A stretch of 64,000 nucleotides of DNA from a virus (lineage: Duplodnaviria; Caudoviricetes). This document shows, in pieces, positions 104 to 40,605 of this stretch. Location of the stretch: positions 24,323 to 88,322 of the IMG/VR virus record IMGVR_UViG_3300013830_000007; one strand, written 5' to 3'. Each line of letters begins with the position of its first letter. The stretch's first letter is position 1. A program made the translations under genes and the position numbers. Below the pieces are notes generated by a model, which saw only the letters and a list, made by a program, of their open reading frames with translations, was not told the DNA's origin and did not search any database.

Positions 104-238
104 TTAGTCCTCAGCCTTAGCAGCCTTCTTGGCTGCTTTGGCCTTGGCCTTCGCTGCCTTCCTCGCAGCCTTAGCGAGGAGCTTGAGCTCCTTGCGGCTG
201 CAGGAAAGCTCAGCGTCCAGATGAAGCTTGCACTTCAT
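104..238 (-). CDS. Small Lys/Ala-rich peptide, 44 aa (MKCKLHLDAELSCSRKELKLLAKAARKAAKAKAKAAKKAAKAED), not in the ORF track
   Basis: Translated by hand from ATG at 238 to TAA at 104-106. GGAGG RBS lies 7 nt upstream, and a conserved promoter (317-355) lies upstream of that. Confidence 0.75.
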   Translation of the reverse strand: MKCKLHLDAELSCSRKELKLLAKAARKAAKAKAKAAKKAAKAED

Positions 239-316
239 GGACTGGCCTCCTTTATTGGACTAGTACCGTTTGTTGAACAACAAACAACATACAGCATCAA
301 CTAGTATAGCTTTATG

Positions 317-355
317 TCACTATAGTTATATATATTCGAGAATATTTAACCTACA
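317..355 (-). promoter_or_regulatory. Promoter copy 1, a 39-bp sequence identical to 36460-36498
   Basis: tcactatagttatatatattcgagaatatttaacctaca occurs at both loci. On the minus strand it reads TTAAAT-N11-TATATAAC, a variant of the window-wide promoter motif. Confidence 0.7.
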
Positions 356-21362: not shown

Positions 21363-21423
21363 TTAATATCTTATATAAAATAAGGGTAGGATAATATGAA
21401 TCCTACTCTTATTTGTTTTTATT

Positions 21424-22884
21424 TTGAGGATTTTACTTATGAGTGGAATTATCACAATTGACCTACTTAGAGATTTCTTAACTAATCTTAAAGGATTATT
21501 TGTAACCAAGACAGATGCTGAAAGCACTTATGAAACTAAGGCAAACGCAGCTAATATCTATGAAACTAAGGCAAACGCAGCTAATATCTATGAAACAAAG
21601 GAAGATGCGGCTACTCACTTAACCAAGACTGAAGCAAGTAAAACTTACATTACTAAAGCCAGTGCAGTCAGTCTGATTTTAGCTGGAAGCAATGCAGCTA
21701 CACATCTGACTAAGACTGAAGCAGCTGATACTTATGTCACTAGAAACGAGTTAGGAATGTATGACTATTCCATCATTATTGATTTTAGTTTAAGCGATCC
21801 AGCTTCTATGATCACTTATACTGATGACGTCGATATAGCTCCTATGGATACACGATGGTTCGATGTATTAGGGCTTAAACTCTGTGTGCTCAAGAATGGT
21901 GTAGTTCAGTATTATCTTAATCCCAATGATGTTACTAAGAAATTAGATGGCAGTGCTGCTGATATTACCACACTTGGTAATGATGTCATGCTTGAAATAC
22001 CTAGAATGGGAACCAACTGTTTATGGCTGGATAGTAACCGTCTTAAAATCACTATTACCACTGCTCCTAACAGAACCGGATACGACTATCGTGCATTCAG
22101 TCTTCATAAATACAACGACTGTGATAAAATTTATATAGGAAGATATCACGCCTGCTTAGACAATAACAGACTGTATAGCAGCAGCGGTAAAACTCCTATG
22201 GTATCGCAGACTCTAGCACAGCACCGTACCTATGCTACTAACCGCGGTGTTGGATATACTAATATCGGTATCTGCGACGATATACTGCTGCAGTGCTTAT
22301 ATCTGCTTATTGTAAGAAACTTCAACTCGCAGAGTGCAGTTGGCAGAGGTATTTGCGATCACGCAAATACGCGCAACACTACTGGCGGAGCTAATACCTT
22401 CGGTTGGCTTAATACTGGTTCTCCCAGAAAAAACGACGGATTTAATACGGCTGTTTGCTGTTTAGGTATCGAGAATTTCTGGGGCAATATTTATGTATGG
22501 GAAGATGGTATAATCCGCAACAGTAATCGTCAGTTTTTCATGGCTCAATACGCTGATCAGTATAATTCAGATGCTACAGGATATGAATATATAGCTCAAG
22601 CCAGTCCTACTGAATCTGGATATCAAGGCAGGTGTGCTGGCATACCTAAATTCATCTTCATGCCTGATGCATCTATTGTCGCTGCTTCCGGTCGTGGTGA
22701 ATCAACCTATATGTGCGACTATCAATGGATTGACGAATCTCGTACGGTCATTGCTGTTTTTGGTGGCCACTGGTACCTTCGTTCGAAGGTTGGTGCTTTC
22801 TGCCGTAGTTTGTGCTATCCGGTTTCGGATGCTGAGACCTATGTTGGTTCGCGCCTGTGTTTTAAAAAAATAGCTGAGAATTGA
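21424..22884 (+). CDS. Tail fibre / receptor-binding protein with C-terminal FGE-type C-type lectin domain (DGR-target-like); probable start at ATG 21439
   Basis: YETK repeats, GIENFWGNIYVWEDG, and C-terminal FGGHW...GAF....VGSRL typical of DGR target variable regions. Confidence 0.75.
   Translation: MRILLMSGIITIDLLRDFLTNLKGLFVTKTDAESTYETKANAANIYETKANAANIYETKEDAATHLTKTEASKTYITKASAVSLILAGSNAATHLTKTEAADTYVTRNELGMYDYSIIIDFSLSDPASMITYTDDVDIAPMDTRWFDVLGLKLCVLKNGVVQYYLNPNDVTKKLDGSAADITTLGNDVMLEIPRMGTNCLWLDSNRLKITITTAPNRTGYDYRAFSLHKYNDCDKIYIGRYHACLDNNRLYSSSGKTPMVSQTLAQHRTYATNRGVGYTNIGICDDILLQCLYLLIVRNFNSQSAVGRGICDHANTRNTTGGANTFGWLNTGSPRKNDGFNTAVCCLGIENFWGNIYVWEDGIIRNSNRQFFMAQYADQYNSDATGYEYIAQASPTESGYQGRCAGIPKFIFMPDASIVAASGRGESTYMCDYQWIDESRTVIAVFGGHWYLRSKVGAFCRSLCYPVSDAETYVGSRLCFKKIAEN
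21529..21597 (+). repeat. 30-bp tandem repeat inside the fibre gene (YETKANAANI x2 plus a partial copy)
   Basis: tatgaaactaaggcaaacgcagctaatatc is repeated perfectly. Confidence 0.9.
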
Positions 22885-22897
22885 TGGATGAAAATGC

Positions 22898-23100
22898 TTT
22901 TGGGGTCTGGGGCCCCAAAAGTGTCCTTACATTTTCATTCTCAATTCTCGCCGTGAAACGAATATAAATACAGCAGCTGTCTTACTGAATTGGACATGGG
23001 CAGAATAGCTGCAATGAAAGGTTGGCTATCTAATAGTACTGAGCAACTATTTATGAATCAATTACAGCTCATCAAATTGATTAACTATATCAAATACAAC
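22898..23100 (+). pseudogene. Putative collapsed DGR remnant: hairpin after the variable region, plus a degenerate RT C-terminus
   Basis: Hairpin ttttggggtc-tgg-ggccccaaaa; a start-less frame from 22957 encodes ELDMGRIAAMKGWLSNSTEQLF, resembling the S(Y)xGWL thumb end of DGR RTs. Confidence 0.4.
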
Positions 23101-23104
23101 TTAC

Positions 23105-23380
23105 ATGGAGATTTTACCGAATATGATAGACAATGGGAAAATACAATGTTCTGACGATAAAGAAATCATCTATGCTAAAGATTATGTATATGTTCATAAA
23201 GATATAGAGAAAGTTGAAATAGAAGATAACGGTAAGACTGGTGTTGTATACAAGTGTCATGAGTATAAATATCCAGTTATGGAATATATTGAGTTAATGA
23301 AAGCTCAGGCAGATTCCACTGAACAGCAGAGTGCTATTTCGGCACTTCGCATCAGTAACCTTCTTCAGAGTGAGGATTAA
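23105..23380 (+). CDS. Small tail-module protein
   Basis: 91 aa; resembles the small proteins that follow fibre genes in gut phages. Confidence 0.6.
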   Translation: MEILPNMIDNGKIQCSDDKEIIYAKDYVYVHKDIEKVEIEDNGKTGVVYKCHEYKYPVMEYIELMKAQADSTEQQSAISALRISNLLQSED

Positions 23381-23983: not shown

Positions 23984-24625
23984 TCAAAACTTAATATCTT
24001 CGTATTCTTTCTCAAACTCAGGCATGTCACTGAGAATAAAGCTATCCTGATCGATTATCTTTTTATTGTTATCTATAGCAACAAAATGAAGTCCATCTGC
24101 ATTAGTCTCAATAATCAAATAAGAACCAGCTCCTTTTGGCTTATTGCGTCTAACTGCCAGATCAATTGCTTCATTCTTAGATTCTTCGTATGATAACTGT
24201 TTATCGTTTACATAGTCATAATCTATCATAAACTTGAAGTATTCATCGATGTATTCATCAGCAATAAAGCGCCGCTGATATCTATCGATAGCTTCAGCTA
24301 CTGAATCTACTTTTTTGCTAAAAGCGTAAACCAGTAACTTATCTGCATCGAAAATACTTTTAAGTTCGCACAGCTTACCCTCATCATACAGTTCAGAGTA
24401 ATAGAAATCGTGATCTACTAAAACCGTACATCCAGTAGCAATAGCTGCATTCTTAAGTTCAGTCATTGACTTAACGCCAAGACTTCTGAAAAGTGGCATG
24501 CTTACCAGATTGTAAGTCATCATGGTCATCTTATCGCTCTCGACTGAGTCGCACTGTCTATCGGAAGCAAGCAACTCAGTAATCGTCTTAAAATGATTGA
24601 GATGAGTATAAATACAGTGTATCAT
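23984..24625 (-). CDS. Hypothetical early protein
   Basis: 213-aa ORF with GAGGA RBS. Confidence 0.7.
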   Translation of the reverse strand: MIHCIYTHLNHFKTITELLASDRQCDSVESDKMTMMTYNLVSMPLFRSLGVKSMTELKNAAIATGCTVLVDHDFYYSELYDEGKLCELKSIFDADKLLVYAFSKKVDSVAEAIDRYQRRFIADEYIDEYFKFMIDYDYVNDKQLSYEESKNEAIDLAVRRNKPKGAGSYLIIETNADGLHFVAIDNNKKIIDQDSFILSDMPEFEKEYEDIKF

Positions 24626-35387: not shown

Positions 35388-36092
35388 TCAGCTTATTCGG
35401 ACAGCATACAATCTAATGTGCTTATCCTTAATTTCCTTCTTAAAGTTATCTATAGATATTTTGTATCTATAGGGAAGCAATCTGGCAAGATGCTCCTGCG
35501 GTGTGAGAATGATATTATCTTTATCAATCTCACTGATTTTCATAATCAGATTCTCAGACTCTTCAGATATAGTCCAAGTCTCATCAAAAGATCTTAATGA
35601 TGCTCTCAGGTTGGCAGAATCCATACCTGTGAGAATAAAATCATCAGCTACAGTTGCACTATTGACTTTGGCTAATTCCAGCCAGGCGTTGAGCTCATCT
35701 TCGGTATCTACAATACCAAGCTCAACATTATCATAATCAGTGAACAGATAAGCAAATGACATCTTGACTTCAAGCATAATCTCAACTATCCACATAGGCA
35801 GATTATTGCGAATAAAAATGCCATATCTGGGTACTGAACTATCTGAAGTTTTCTTACCGTTCTCATCAGTAACGTACATAATCTTAATCGCATCGTCATG
35901 ATCGATTATTCCATTACTGGTAAGATGACAGTTTCTGAAAATATCAAAAAAGTCAACAACACTGTTAGTAGTGTTTCTCATACGGATAGACATGAGCATA
36001 GTGTATTTGCTCGGTATCTCTTCCTCTGGTTTAAAAGCCCCTGCTGTTCTGGCTTTAACCATCATCTGAAATGTATCTTTCACATCATACAT
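35388..36092 (-). CDS. Hypothetical protein
   Basis: 234-aa ORF upstream of rnhA. Confidence 0.75.
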   Translation of the reverse strand: MYDVKDTFQMMVKARTAGAFKPEEEIPSKYTMLMSIRMRNTTNSVVDFFDIFRNCHLTSNGIIDHDDAIKIMYVTDENGKKTSDSSVPRYGIFIRNNLPMWIVEIMLEVKMSFAYLFTDYDNVELGIVDTEDELNAWLELAKVNSATVADDFILTGMDSANLRASLRSFDETWTISEESENLIMKISEIDKDNIILTPQEHLARLLPYRYKISIDNFKKEIKDKHIRLYAVRIS

Positions 36093-36176
36093 TTTGAGTA
36101 TTCAATTCCTATAAAACCTTTATACAAAATCCCTGTATCTATTGATACCACTGCATACTCTCAATATATTAAAAAT

Positions 36177-36213
36177 GAAAAAAAAAAAAAAATAAGCTGT
36201 CATTTCTGACAGC
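36177..36213 (-). terminator. Intrinsic terminator with a GAAA tetraloop
   Basis: Minus strand gctgtca-GAAA-tgacagc followed by a long T run. Confidence 0.85.
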
Positions 36214-36460
36214 CTATTTCCGAACGGACTCAGTGATCGTTGCGCTTGGTCTGCTCGTATCAGACCCGATCACTGCCGCTCTTCCGCATCCAGGGCTTCT
36301 CTCCAGTCACCTGTGCGGCTCATCCCCGTGTGCATCCGAGGTCTGCTACGAGCAGCGTTCACTGTCTGAGTGCTAGGTATTCCTAACACCTTCAACAGCG
36401 CTCCCGCTTTTTAATGCACTTATTGCACGGGAGGATATATGCACATTGCTGTACACATAT
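36214..36460 (-). ncRNA. Candidate structured ncRNA of about 250 nt
   Basis: GC-rich non-coding island with at least five stems, bounded by a promoter (36460-36498) and a terminator (36177-36213). Confidence 0.55.
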
Positions 36461-36498
36461 CACTATAGTTATATATATTCGAGAATATTTAACCTACA
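36460..36498 (-). promoter_or_regulatory. Promoter copy 2, identical to 317-355
   Basis: 39-bp exact match. Confidence 0.7.
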
Positions 36499-36681
36499 GT
36501 TTAAAATAGTAGTCCCCGATTTCTCGGAGGCTACTAGGTTATCAAGGTTCAATAGAGGTTAGAGATTTTAGCATCATGGGAACAACCAGTAACGATAACC
36601 CAAGCAGGAGGTTAAATGAAAATCACAAATCCGAAATTTTCATTGTTACTAATTATCTCAATTAATAGCCCGAGTTAATTT

Positions 36682-38946
36682 TTATTCAACATGTGCTAAC
36701 GCTTTCTTTCCTTCCTCTTCGCTTACCCATCCATAGACATTGGAAAATATTATATCTTTCTTGGCATCGCCAACTGATATTCCAAGTGAACCCAATATCA
36801 GATACAAAGGTTTGGAATTTGCCGATACCAATTTGTTATAGTCAATCACTGGCTGCAGTTCTGCAGGTATAGTATTAAACGACGGGTTAATCGGTATTCT
36901 ATTCAAATCTTTATCAGGATACTTTTCTTTAAATCTCATTAACTTCTGATAAATCCCAAAATCTTTTTCTTTCAGCCAATCCTGATATTTTAAACTCTCC
37001 ATACCAAAAAGCGGAACTATATAACACTTAGTAGGTATCTGGATTTTACCATACTTATCTCCGAATACTTCTTCCCATAACAAATAATTAAAATATACGG
37101 ATGAATCGGCATTAGCATATTCATCTTTGTTTTTAATTGCAGTCATGGGTAAAAATTCAGTCTGTAAGTGTCTCAATGAGTCTCTTATCATTCTTTCGAA
37201 TCTTAATACGTCAATTAATTTCTCTTCCGCAACAACCGTAGATTTCGAATAAATATCATCGATTACAGACCTAATAAACCACTCAGTGTAGGATAGTACT
37301 CCCTTACTAAAATTAGATCCTCTTAACCCAACTCCTTTGATATCAAGACGTGGAGTTTTGAATACAACACCTTCCTGAATTTTCAGTATACTGGCATAAT
37401 GTTTTTTCAACGATGTCAAAATATCAACTGGCATCATGAATTCGTTTTTCATCGCCATACCAGTCAAATCTTTACCAAGTGCGCCGAATGCTTCGCTTAC
37501 ATGAAACAAAACATTGGCATTGGCTTTACTCAGCCAATAGACGATCAGAGAATTGATCTGATACGCTTTACTGTCCATGACTGTATTACCTTTGTACCAC
37601 TGTAACCAGCTCTTGGTAGTAAAAATAATACTATCGGTATCACTGACAACTACGGCATCACGATATTGATTTTTATGCTCAACAACGTATGAAACGTTAA
37701 CGTTGTGATTCATAAACAAATCAAAAACATCCATGAAACTTTTAAGCATTATTTCAAGATGCTTTCCATAAGCCGCTAATCTCCGGGCTAATTCAGGGTT
37801 GACTTTAATACAATCGTAAATCGAAATAGCATTTCCCTTATCGTTCAGAGGCAGCATTTCGTTACATACGGTACTCAGGATAATGGCAACATCTCCATCG
37901 ATGTTGTTAATATCATCGGGTACAATATTCTGATCAACTTCAACTTTACTGAAATCAAAAAGTTTTTGAGTCCAATCTCTGAACCAACTGTCGTTAGTAA
38001 AAACAAGATGTTTCATATTGCTCATGTAAAATACGAAACACAGTTGTTCTTTACTGAAAGTCCGGAGTAGTCGGTCAATTGGTGAAGTCTCAGCCAGAAA
38101 ATCATATCGTTTTAAAGCTTTAAATAAAAACTCTTCAACCATTTCGAAACTAGGATAAACGAATCCGTATTTATCCATAATCTCGTCGATTTTCTTACTA
38201 TCAGGACCACACCGCAGGCACCCCATCAAAAAGTTAATAACCTGCTCAGTATTCAGGAAATAGAAATTACTTTCAAGAAATCTTTCAGCATGAGCATATG
38301 AGTTCATGATGAAGAATCTTCCGATACTGGTAACACTGTTAAAATCAGCTACTGAACTCAGACTGCTGAACCCACTTCCCATTCCGCCAGCTATTGAGTT
38401 CATCAGTACTTTGATAGTACTCTGGTTGTTGTTGTGGAATACTTCAGCGACTTTGTTACATTCTTTCTTAGCCTTGAGCATAAGCTTTTTCTCCTGCTTA
38501 CGCTGGCTTTTTTTCATATCAATCATTCCCTTCAGATAACTTACGCATTTATCAGTAGTTTCAAAAACTACTCCGAAAGGAGAGATAATTTTATCAGAAT
38601 ACCGTTTGGTGAATTTATACAAATCCATATCAGGAATTTCGATATAATCACCATATACGTGAGCTCTGTTGTGAATATTATTACTATCAGAGCTTCGAAT
38701 ACAACGAAGAGTAGGCCACAATTGGTCATCCCCGAATCGGGGAGTGTTAAGGTCTAATCCTTCGTTCCTGGCCCTTTCAAGATTGCCTATCAGTACGCCG
38801 ACTCTCCGATTAACTTTATCAGCTACCCATTCACGAATCTCTTCATAGTCAAACTCAGGATGAGTTCGTTTCAAATAATCTGACATTACCGAAATGTAAG
38901 ATTCAAATACATCTGGCCGTTTAATAGGAACAGTATTAAAATTCAT
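36682..38946 (-). CDS. Family B DNA polymerase, polymerase domain (phiKZ gp50-like split PolB)
   Basis: KVLMNSIAGG (motif B), VVSDTDS (motif C), KKHYA, LDIKGV; no exonuclease motifs seen. Confidence 0.8.
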   Translation of the reverse strand: MNFNTVPIKRPDVFESYISVMSDYLKRTHPEFDYEEIREWVADKVNRRVGVLIGNLERARNEGLDLNTPRFGDDQLWPTLRCIRSSDSNNIHNRAHVYGDYIEIPDMDLYKFTKRYSDKIISPFGVVFETTDKCVSYLKGMIDMKKSQRKQEKKLMLKAKKECNKVAEVFHNNNQSTIKVLMNSIAGGMGSGFSSLSSVADFNSVTSIGRFFIMNSYAHAERFLESNFYFLNTEQVINFLMGCLRCGPDSKKIDEIMDKYGFVYPSFEMVEEFLFKALKRYDFLAETSPIDRLLRTFSKEQLCFVFYMSNMKHLVFTNDSWFRDWTQKLFDFSKVEVDQNIVPDDINNIDGDVAIILSTVCNEMLPLNDKGNAISIYDCIKVNPELARRLAAYGKHLEIMLKSFMDVFDLFMNHNVNVSYVVEHKNQYRDAVVVSDTDSIIFTTKSWLQWYKGNTVMDSKAYQINSLIVYWLSKANANVLFHVSEAFGALGKDLTGMAMKNEFMMPVDILTSLKKHYASILKIQEGVVFKTPRLDIKGVGLRGSNFSKGVLSYTEWFIRSVIDDIYSKSTVVAEEKLIDVLRFERMIRDSLRHLQTEFLPMTAIKNKDEYANADSSVYFNYLLWEEVFGDKYGKIQIPTKCYIVPLFGMESLKYQDWLKEKDFGIYQKLMRFKEKYPDKDLNRIPINPSFNTIPAELQPVIDYNKLVSANSKPLYLILGSLGISVGDAKKDIIFSNVYGWVSEEEGKKALAHVE

Positions 38947-39020
38947 AACTAACCTCTGCTTGAAATTTTCTAAAATATTTCAGCAGTAACTTATTAGTGA
39001 TTTGCTTAAAAATGTCTACC

Positions 39021-39980
39021 CACTAGAATACAACACCTACCCATATAAAATTGAAATAATCATAAATTTTATACCGTAAGAATAGGCTTTACAGATAAAG
39101 AAAATAACTTGATAACCAAAAGGGTTGTTGATCTAAGTTGATATTTTTAAGATAAAATATTTCAAAAAATTTTTCACCCGAAAAATTTATTCGTGATGGC
39201 TATCTGCATATAGGCTTTGATTATTGCTAAAACCCCTCTAGCCTAAGGTAATAGGCTTTTCTTATAGCCTATATCTTATATATCTAAGTAAATAAAGGAA
39301 TAACATATAAGCCTATAGCGTCACTTCGTTCCGCTATAGGCTTATATGTTATATTTATACTACCCCATCCTTTTTTTTAATACTTTCCTTCCCCTAACTT
39401 GGAGAATTCAAGCACAACATAACGATGCATTGTACAAAAATATTTTGCCGTATTTCTCGGCTTAAAATAAAACCTATAAGAATTTGACTGAAAATTTTTA
39501 AAATCGTTATAGAGATATATCAAAATTTGCCTAGGATAAGTCGATTTTAAACTCTTTTACGATTAATCGGCACCTTTTAATCTCTAGCTAATGTAAAATA
39601 GTCTTATCACTAGAATACAACACCTACCCTAGTTTAGAATGAATTATTGAATAATTTGTGCCGTATGAATCGGCCTTACAGCAAAGAAAATTTTCATGAT
39701 AACTAAACATAGTCTCGACCTATATTCGATTTTTGACCTGAAAATTTTAGATACCGAAGTTAGAACCTTACCCCAGAAGAGGTAAGGTTCAACTTTCGAC
39801 CCCCAAAAATTTTTATTCGTGATGGCAATCGGCAATAGGCTTTGATTATGGCTTATCTCCCTCTAGCCTAAGGTAATAGGCTTTTCTTATAGCCTATATC
39901 TTATATATCTAACTATATAAAGGTATATCTAATAGCCTATAGCGTCACTTCGTTCCGCTATAGGCTATTAGATATATTAT
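39021..39980. repeat. Two imperfect tandem non-coding units, each with a 21-bp perfect hairpin (39300-39352; 39924-39976); candidate origin or regulatory region
   Basis: 22-bp identity at 39021/39608; shared core of about 53 bp at 39234/39860; identical 11-nt hairpin loops. Confidence 0.8.
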
Positions 39981-40224
39981 TTTCTATCCTATTTTCTCCA
40001 GTCCTCCTCTTCCCTTACGAGAATGGTGTTGGTTCACATCATACCTATCAAGTTGTACAGAAATATATAGTCGAGCCGCTCAGCTATATTGAAGAATAAG
40101 CTTTTTTATATTAAATATTATAATCTTACCTATTATTTTAATACAGCTGTAACAAAATTACGCAAAGGTTTTTGTTAAATAATATGTTCTGGTCATTTAC
40201 TTTAAAACCAAAATTGAAATTGAT

Positions 40225-40264
40225 AAAAAAAAATAACCCACGCATTTAAATTGCTATGCGTGGG
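40225..40264 (-). terminator. Intrinsic terminator
   Basis: cccacgcat/atgcgtggg stem plus a T tract on the minus strand. Confidence 0.65.
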
Positions 40265-40277
40265 CTTGACCTCTCCA

Positions 40278-40484
40278 TTAAATCTCGAAGAGGTCAATAG
40301 ACAGCTTATACAGCTTAAACCGTAACTCGGCTATTCTCTCCCACTCTGGAGTGCCGATCTCCAGAGCGTTGTCAACAGTCTTGACCTTCTCAATAAGGTC
40401 AAGAACCATTTTACGTGCTGCCTGTTTTTCTTCCGGAGAAGCAGCAGCAATCTCCTCCGGAGTTATGAAGATCCAATCATTCAT
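40278..40484 (-). CDS. Small hypothetical early protein
   Basis: 68 aa with AAGGAGG RBS; its own promoter variant near 40542-40567 and its own terminator. Confidence 0.75.
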   Translation of the reverse strand: MNDWIFITPEEIAAASPEEKQAARKMVLDLIEKVKTVDNALEIGTPEWERIAELRFKLYKLSIDLFEI

Positions 40485-40605
40485 GATGGAACCTCCTTTT
40501 AAAAGCCCGCTAGGAAGGCAAGAACACCTAGCATCATCCGAATTATATATAATCGTTTTTTTTTGAGTTACACAAAAATAAAATTAAAATTATTTGTAAT
40601 ATGAG

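Follow-up and report, generated by a model that had tools for sequence, protein, structure and literature searches.

A moron, in the concept of Hendrix and Juhala, is a promoter-gene-terminator cassette inserted between core genes. Among anti-defence accessory loci, those for anti-CRISPRs combine a conserved promoter with cargo that varies, and anti-defence RNAs are exemplified by RNA anti-CRISPRs and by pseudo-ToxI. To our knowledge, accessory cassettes of phages, like loci for counter-defence, have been described almost exclusively as protein genes. The present analysis concerns a cassette whose cargo is a structured RNA, designated RNA-1, located next to the DNA polymerase gene in a 64,000-nt stretch of phage DNA (Caudoviricetes; IMG/VR record IMGVR_UViG_3300013830_000007, positions 24,323 to 88,322; hereafter the window, to which all coordinates refer unless another contig is named). 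For T4-like phages, terminator/promoter composites termed promoter-early stem-loops (PeSLs) have been described, through which unrelated cargo that is not essential is exchanged by homologous recombination within hyperplastic regions (PMC2839356, PMC4122927).

Like a moron, the RNA-1 cassette has a predicted promoter of its own and an intrinsic terminator, directly follows the terminator of a core gene, lies at a gene boundary, deviates in composition (GC content 0.57 versus 0.37), and is missing in close relatives whose flanks are ∼99% identical. It differs in that the cargo is a structured non-coding RNA, not a protein gene, and in that it resides in a lytic-type jumbo phage of the rumen, not in a lambdoid prophage. 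As in PeSL cassettes, a stem-loop terminator and a conserved motif, here a predicted promoter, lie next to dispensable cargo at a hyperplastic site, and unrelated cargos have been exchanged at the identical motif between close relatives; a sister cassette at the beginning of the window (site 1) carries a protein cargo behind the same promoter. However, only two to three copies of the motif occur per ∼90 kb instead of dozens, the cargo is RNA, and the phage, with a genome of ∼240–260 kb and a divergent family-B polymerase (PF20286), is a rumen phage and not a T4-like myovirus. Because lineage, number of motif copies and nature of the cargo differ, the RNA-1 cassette is considered an analogue of PeSL cassettes and not a member of that class. 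The source record comprises 88 kb with an estimated completeness of 34%, which puts the whole genome at roughly 250 kb; relatives of the polymerase are located on contigs of ∼220–250 kb from gut or rumen samples. As judged from sequence comparison, the unit is an accessory “RNA moron” in an apparently recombination-prone promoter/terminator slot. It is very likely that a real, expressed, non-coding accessory RNA cassette is present at this site, and the complete statement, which combines a swappable RNA cassette with a putative trans-acting, protein-binding function, has about even chances of being correct.

The transcription unit and its expression

The sequence-only reading had proposed a stand-alone non-coding RNA at 36196–36498. 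The element proved to be real, but it is read on the minus strand; positions 36498 to ∼36174 constitute one autonomous transcription unit, composed of a promoter motif, a GC-rich RNA of ∼280 nt, and a terminator. RNA-1 itself occupies 36178 to 36463 (minus strand), as delimited by the computed folds, a covariance model (R1; 339 bits in the window and 334 bits in the homologous contig L008), the depth of metatranscriptome contigs, and the homology with L008. Its 5′ end probably corresponds to G36463 (T7-like reading of the promoter) or approximately G36456 (sigma-70 reading), and its 3′ end lies within the U-run at 36192–36178. The unit is independent because the polymerase gene terminates separately (36535 to 36505) and because the terminator of the cassette is read on the minus strand. 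As had been noticed before, the stretch is far richer in GC than its surroundings and devoid of a credible long open reading frame (ORF); GC content at 36175–36440 is 0.49–0.57, compared with a mean of 0.37 for the window, and no ORF of more than 48 aa in the ORF list of the window overlaps it. GC skew over the RNA-1 region is −0.19 to −0.23 on the plus strand, that is, the RNA is G-rich relative to its template.

The 601-nt locus was found in 20 public runs (six of them metatranscriptomic) from nine studies, nearly all of bovine gut. Assembled contigs of four RNA runs (X15, X17, X18, and X19) were placed on 35950–36849 and their k-mer depths compared. For X17, depth was 585–2,950 inside 36220–36400 versus 10–73 in the flanks, and for X18/X19 it was 8,000–141,000 (maximum 141340) inside 36280–36460 versus 62–78 in the flanks; overall, RNA contigs from these three runs had 10^2–10^3 times the k-mer depth of the flanks. 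An 81-nt contig with a depth of 14,977 overlaps a 2,365-nt flank contig with a depth of 64, and strain-specific variants are common to both, which shows that the abundant RNA originates from this cassette. Since the contrast in depth is restricted to the element, there is hardly an explanation other than a very abundant, stable RNA. In RNA data from the cattle rumen, this structured orphan RNA appears to rank with the most plentiful products of phages. The flat depth in X15, the uncovered bin 36250–36279 in X18/X19, the low 5′ depth in X17, and chimeric loose ends at 36280 and 36308 were not used as evidence; neither was an Illumina adapter abutting 36225 in one X17 contig, which hints only weakly that the RNA has a discrete end there.

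A promoter and a GAAA-loop terminator had been proposed as the boundaries of the element. The terminator was recovered by a scan of the minus strand, and the promoter motif is borne out by its conservation, while its activity is predicted. The conserved motif of 39 nt (TGTAGGTTAAATATTCTCGAATATATATAACTATAGTGA; 36460 to 36498, minus strand) has an identical second copy in the window (355 to 317) and holds possible −35 (TTAAAT/TTGAAT) and −10 (TATAGT) boxes. Its core, AACTATAG, is similar to the T7/SP6 core CACTATAG. Two readings are possible: with TATAGT as a −10 box of the sigma-70 type, transcription would start near 36456, and with a T7/SP6-like core it would start at G36463. A T7-like RNA polymerase (PF00940) was not found in G000, G001 and G002, all of which are genome fragments, and control genomes were likewise without a match. 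Copies of the motif in other contigs vary solely upstream of −16, the core AATATATATAACTATAG-TGA being invariant. The 39-nt motif is kept at no fewer than three independent cargos, conservation stops at the start site, and in all three contexts examined a terminator is located immediately before it. Scanning IMG/VR with a promoter 33-mer gave no exact match, and the 20-nt core matched solely the L021 contig described below. An imperfect 18-bp palindrome centred on CTATAG (ATATAACTATAGTGATAT; 36457 to 36474), detected in a repeat search, overlaps the −10 box and the start site and may represent an operator.

The intrinsic terminator of RNA-1 (36174 to 36221, minus strand) consists of a 15-bp stem, a GAAA loop and U15; the consensus terminator scan placed it at 36221 to 36188 plus the T-run, and Tandem Repeats Finder reported the A15 run at 36178–36192. 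Directly upstream of the cassette, the DNA polymerase gene has an intrinsic terminator of its own (tagtagcctccga-gaaa-tcggggactacta followed by tttt; 36505 to 36535, minus strand), which was identified by inspection and by the terminator scan and is also kept in the contig with an empty site, L013. In another contig, L018, this polymerase terminator carries its inner stem and loop (window 36514–36529) as the reverse complement (CCTCCGAGAAATCGGGG to TCCCCGATTTCTCGGGG), a hairpin flip that leaves the pairing intact.

Fold, coding potential and relatedness of RNA-1

Every stem listed by the sequence-only reading was present where it had been placed and recurred in the computed folds. The minus-strand fold reached −125.6 kcal/mol for 311 nt (z −7.7; 0 of 100 shuffles as good) and −114 kcal/mol for the 281 nt from 36456 to 36176 (z −6.6; 0 of 200 shuffles as good), whereas the z score of the plus-strand fold was only −3.6. 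Six distinct natural copies of RNA-1 (98% mean identity) were aligned, and a consensus structure was derived with RNAalifold. At the 5′ end, P1 (36434 to 36461, minus strand) is a 12-bp hairpin with a GCAA (GNRA) tetraloop, invariant in the six sequences; A36438>G in contigs from the RNA runs converts one of its U-A pairs to U-G. The adjoining multi-branched domain of ∼110 nt (36324 to 36432, minus strand) is closed by long-range helices (36432–36427/36329–36324 and 36419–36413/36336–36330), which enclose P3 (36400–36360, with an AAUA tip loop) and P4 (36355–36343). An alternative set of local hairpins differs by at most 3 kcal/mol and is the minimum free energy (MFE) structure of the window's own sequence, whereas the long-range form is the MFE structure in four of the six variants. 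The ctcccg/cgggag stem of the sequence-only reading belongs to the local set: it is present, but it competes with the long-range helix 36432–36427/36329–36324. The U36432>C variant disrupts the local hairpin, yet turns a U-G into a C-G pair in the long-range helix, and natural variants fit the long-range helix better than the local hairpin.

Further downstream, P5 (36284 to 36318, minus strand; ccgca.../...tgcgg arms) is the sole internal helix with a compensatory double change, C-G to U-A at 36314/36286 in L018. In the terminator, L018 carries G-C to A-U plus G-U to G-C, and L015 carries G-U to A-U. P6 (36222 to 36281, minus strand), a 60-nt hairpin with cagtgatcg/ggtctg arms and an 8-nt internal loop (AAGCGCAA), is invariant in all copies. 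Its apex (36251–36266) is complementary to the P4 region (36340–36355) at 15 of 16 positions, and both segments are without variation; this complementarity may reflect a switch, a pseudoknot-like contact, an alternative pairing, or an intermolecular kissing site. The last of these would be expected if RNA-1, in the manner of ROOL, GOLLD and raiA, were an “ornate” RNA that self-assembles into a particle, with the palindromic internal loops that are present in it (GCGC, UGCA) and the P4/P6 complementarity mediating kissing between molecules, so that homo-oligomers would form. Like ROOL, GOLLD and HEARO, RNA-1 is a GC-rich, multi-helix, multi-domain RNA in an AT-rich phage of the rumen or gut and is very highly expressed. 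ROOL and GOLLD typically neighbour a tRNA, and a tRNA is also found at this spot in relatives of the phage. On the other hand, the Rfam models of ROOL, GOLLD, HEARO and raiA remained unmatched, RNA-1 (∼280 nt) is at most half the size of ROOL, its copies, which are at least 94% identical, are restricted to a narrow lineage, and the complementary segments may equally well pair within one molecule. Assembly into such a particle is, therefore, improbable.

The same helices bear on the question of whether the transcript encodes a micro-peptide. A frame of 17 aa (MSRTGDWREALDAEERQ; 36323 to 36270) is intact in all six variants, its AUG lies within the unpaired AUGAG linker, and the sister cassette with the same promoter encodes a 44-aa protein. 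However, GGGG abuts the ATG and a spaced Shine-Dalgarno sequence is lacking, whereas the protein cassettes under the same promoter class carry AAGGAGG. Both changes of L018 within the frame (one synonymous, one Ala to Thr) are exact pairing partners in P5, which suggests selection at the level of the RNA. A longer TTG frame of 41 aa from the ORF list (36270 to 36395, minus strand), which contains the 17-aa frame, was judged non-coding; it is shortened to 16 codons by insertion of a G after 36360 in L008, L009, L018 and most of the X17 contig depth. Moreover, RNA-2 and RNA-3, the unrelated RNAs found in equivalent positions (see below), contain no credible frames. Homologues conserving the peptide but not the stems had been named beforehand as grounds for rejecting a structured non-coding RNA; in fact, the shorter frame and the P5 pairing are kept together and the longer frame is broken. 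Thus, an mRNA function is very improbable, and RNA-1 is judged to be non-coding, without a credible frame.

RNA-1 does not belong to a described RNA family. At gathering threshold, Rfam 15 produced no match in the 64-kb window, and at E ≤ 10 only chance-level scores of 12–21 bits, none covering the body of the RNA, were obtained for 36050–36720. ARAGORN identified no tRNA or tmRNA gene in the window, in agreement with the earlier statement that signatures of tRNA, tmRNA, RNase P and SRP are lacking, and the cmscan search proposed at that time likewise ended without a family. The loci of RNA-2 and RNA-3 had no Rfam match either. No match was obtained by blastn of 36100–36700 against 50,697 annotated phage records, two 20-mers from the RNA core had no exact match in IMG/VR, and model R1 found no distant homologue in the fetched loci or in record G002. 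A 22-mer of RNA-1 was absent from 185,579 GTDB species genomes, which gave no indication of a copy derived from a host or located in a prophage. The earlier suggestion of a novel stand-alone phage RNA is consistent with all of this: no Rfam family applies, the frames are not conserved as coding sequence, the very high depth is confined to the element, and comparison of contigs delimits a discrete cassette. The roles suggested with it, a decoy, an RNAP regulator or an antitoxin mimic, are putative.

For two specific architectures no support was obtained, and a third candidate was rejected. A 6S-like RNA would form a single rod with a central bubble, whereas RNA-1 has five or six separate domains and no Rfam 6S match. 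A ToxI-like type III antitoxin would be a tandem array of short repeats, whereas 36100–36600 contains no tandem or direct repeats except the A15 run; the genes beside the cassette, where an endoribonuclease toxin would be expected, encode the polymerase, RNase H, and a protein of 234 aa to which no function is assigned. The template-repeat RNA of a diversity-generating retroelement (DGR) was rejected because both strands of RNA-1 align with the DGR-like variable region (21400–23200) at shuffle level, and blastn-short of RNA-1 against the 88-kb record gave nothing in that region.

Exchange of the cassette and the putative role of RNA-1

Eight contigs encode an identical 234-aa neighbour, and six of them (L014–L018 and L020) contain the cassette. 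It is absent from L013 and the masked L019 (one or two contigs), where the intergenic region measures 284–286 nt. L013 was seen in five samples and has ∼45 nt of unrelated filler where the cassette would be; it diverges from the window by 0.3–1.1% in most flank segments and by up to ∼4% in the RNase H segment. Flank divergence in the comparison of L013–L018 and L020 was 0.4–1.4%. Natural strains with and without the cassette, therefore, exist in public data, which makes the question of its function directly testable. More distant relatives, with polymerases of 77%, 61% and 46–55% identity, are without RNA-1 at the polymerase locus; the slot contains nothing, a crAss001_48-like gene and a tRNA-Met, two to three small ORFs, or other non-coding sequence. 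Because they lack the cassette, these relatives are useless for covariation but informative with respect to gain and loss. By these sequence comparisons, the spot downstream of the polymerase is an evidently hyperplastic accessory locus. At 61% polymerase identity, the slot (L006:5293–5880) harbors a crAss001_48-like gene of 80 aa (PF21825), followed by a hairpin-rich stretch of ∼200 nt ending in a terminator; a tRNA-Met (CAT) candidate was read there by eye.

A 24-mer scan of JGI metagenomes retrieved L008, with L009 alongside, in which the complete RNA-1 cassette, from promoter to terminator, occupies a second locus; its identity to the window is 98.4% and spans exactly 322 nt (36498–36178). 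This locus belongs to a cluster of sugar-modification genes, where RNA-1 comes after an ORF of 170 aa and is followed by a gene in convergent orientation; besides the 322-nt cassette, neither nucleotide nor protein similarity to the 88-kb record was found in L008/L009. The same second locus in L021 (IMGVR_UViG_3300013830_000006, 95.6 kb) shares the promoter, the T-run and the flanks, yet its cargo is a GC-rich structured RNA of ∼240 nt that is unrelated to RNA-1 and is designated RNA-2 (L021:3598–3860; z −5.1). Thus, one and the same motif heads RNA-1 in L008/L009 and RNA-2 in L021, the left flank up to and including the promoter and the right flank from the T-run onwards being identical. A third RNA, RNA-3 (∼300 nt with its terminator; L024:3880–4232; z −3.2), follows a diverged copy of the promoter at the polymerase locus of a phage whose polymerase is 88% identical to that of the window. 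RNA-1, RNA-2, RNA-3 and the transcript of the sister cassette have nothing in common beyond their T-runs. The exchanged segment always extends from the start site to the terminator stem/U-run, which fits a swapping of cargo through homologous recombination, with the terminator/promoter composite and the T-run as the sites of exchange, in the manner described for PeSL cassettes. Terminal inverted repeats, target duplications and mobility genes were not found at the cassette ends.

In its genetics, RNA-1 resembles an accessory weapon: it comes and goes between genomes, changes its locus, and gives way to unrelated RNAs behind one conserved promoter. In this respect, its distribution resembles that of anti-defence loci, in which a conserved strong promoter, here a predicted one, likewise precedes small unrelated cargos that are exchanged rapidly and occur patchily in phages otherwise nearly identical. 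RNA-1 differs from them by the lack of tandem or CRISPR-like repeats, so that repeat mimicry does not apply, and by the lack of any identified aca-like regulator. A passenger that is selfish or neutral, spreading by recombination at the promoter and T-run and highly transcribed merely through its promoter without benefit to the phage, would also show patchy presence and interchangeable cargo and would be conserved no better than its flanks, as is the case for RNA-1. However, the fold is far more stable than expected by chance and contains compensatory changes, and every cargo in the slot is strongly structured, including RNA-2 and RNA-3. A useless RNA expressed at such a level would be costly, and the ends lack the marks of a mobile element mentioned above. 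A mere passenger, thus, has a low probability.

The patchy distribution and fast turnover would be explained if RNA-1 served host takeover or counter-defence. RNA-1 is tentatively proposed, with somewhat less than even chances, to be a trans-acting, very abundant, nuclease-resistant, protein-binding RNA (a decoy, sponge or scaffold) that would aid host takeover or counter host defence, a putative decoy or sponge role being preferred. Base-pairing small RNAs (sRNAs) of phages and prophages are established, and an exposed loop or linker of RNA-1 might instead pair with an mRNA, either of the host or of the part of the phage genome beyond the sampled 34%, and alter its translation or stability. 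The gene runs from its own promoter to its own terminator and the RNA has a U-rich 3′ end, like many trans-acting sRNAs, and AUGAG, AUACGAG and the internal loop of P6 could act as seeds. On the other hand, a length of ∼280 nt and almost complete pairing are atypical of a seed-type sRNA, complementarity within the 88-kb phage record did not exceed chance (10–11-mers, none longer than 11 nt), and the unrelated RNAs in the same slot would have to have wholly different targets. Regulation by base pairing is, therefore, unlikely. Protein binding is favored because little sequence is single-stranded in the fold and a phage antisense target of more than 11 nt is lacking, and because RNA-1 is large, extremely abundant, and dispensable or replaceable. 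If this function is correct, it would add an RNA layer to the conflict between phage and host in a major gut ecosystem, and structural studies would gain three new RNA folds, along with a promoter/terminator module that is compact and very strong. In a broader and still less probable version, the phage lineage would maintain “RNA expression slots” with a near-invariant promoter and a terminator, into which unrelated hyper-abundant RNAs (RNA-1, RNA-2, and RNA-3) are shuffled, each neutralising a different host immunity factor or protein or forming an RNA-only particle, as a counterpart of anti-defence protein islands.

Several observations weigh against the overall proposal. RNA-1 of L018 diverges by 2.8%, compared with ∼1% in its flanks, and so gives no sign of unusual purifying selection. 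The covariation check on homologues proposed by the sequence-only reading yielded two compensatory pairs (P5 and terminator), both from the single sequence L018, and was otherwise thin; the observed covariation score was reached by 12–13 of 500 shuffles for the long-range fold and by 102–131 of 500 for the local fold. Because all copies are at least 94% identical and covariation is thin, the support for most helices is thermodynamic. The promoter motif occurs twice in the 88-kb record and once in the 95.6 kb of L021, whereas the PeSLs of T4-like phages are far more numerous. As to expression, X15 had a flat depth of ∼30 over the locus, X18 and X19 gave nearly identical numbers and are probably one data set filed twice, and assembled contigs cannot give strand, ends, or true level.

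Neighboring genes and further cassettes

To the left of the cassette lies the gene of the 234-aa protein (35388–36092, minus strand), with the RNase H gene next after it, and to the right that of the divergent family-B DNA polymerase (36682–38946, minus strand; PF20286, E 2e-106). Its position between DNA polymerase and RNase H, the G-richness of the RNA relative to its template, and a promoter predicted to be strong raised the question of whether RNA-1 is a replication transcript, that is, the R-loop or primer RNA of an origin, comparable to ColE1 RNA II or T4 oriF/oriG. However, the cassette is dispensable, being absent from L013 and from the relatives with 77%-identical polymerases, it also occurs at the unrelated sugar-modification locus, it can be swapped for unrelated RNAs, and the RNA accumulates as a stable species. 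In addition, a better origin candidate is present upstream of the polymerase gene. There is, thus, very little to be said for a role of RNA-1 in priming. The region upstream, 38950–40250, comprises 1.3 kb without ORFs between the polymerase start and a small ORF and includes two diverged direct units of ∼625 nt, set ∼625 nt apart, in both of which the same palindromic element of 33 nt recurs unchanged (39310–39342 and 39934–39966); this region may serve as a replication origin or in regulation.

Two protein cassettes of similar layout were observed in the window. A small cassette at 40278–40572 (minus strand) has a diverged promoter (…GATTATATATAATTCGGATGATG), AAGGAGG, an acidic ORF of 68 aa (40484 to 40278) without a Pfam match, and a terminator. 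The sister cassette with the identical promoter (104 to 355, minus strand; L002:1165–1560) has a terminator that extends beyond the start of the window. Downstream of the promoter at 355 to 317, an AAGGAGG ribosome-binding site precedes a GC-rich ORF of 44 aa (238 to 104), after which a trailer of ∼120 nt, likewise GC-rich, leads to the terminator. The encoded protein, for which no Pfam match was obtained, is rich in lysine and alanine, and its C-terminal half consists almost only of lysine, alanine and arginine, resembling the tail of histone H1.

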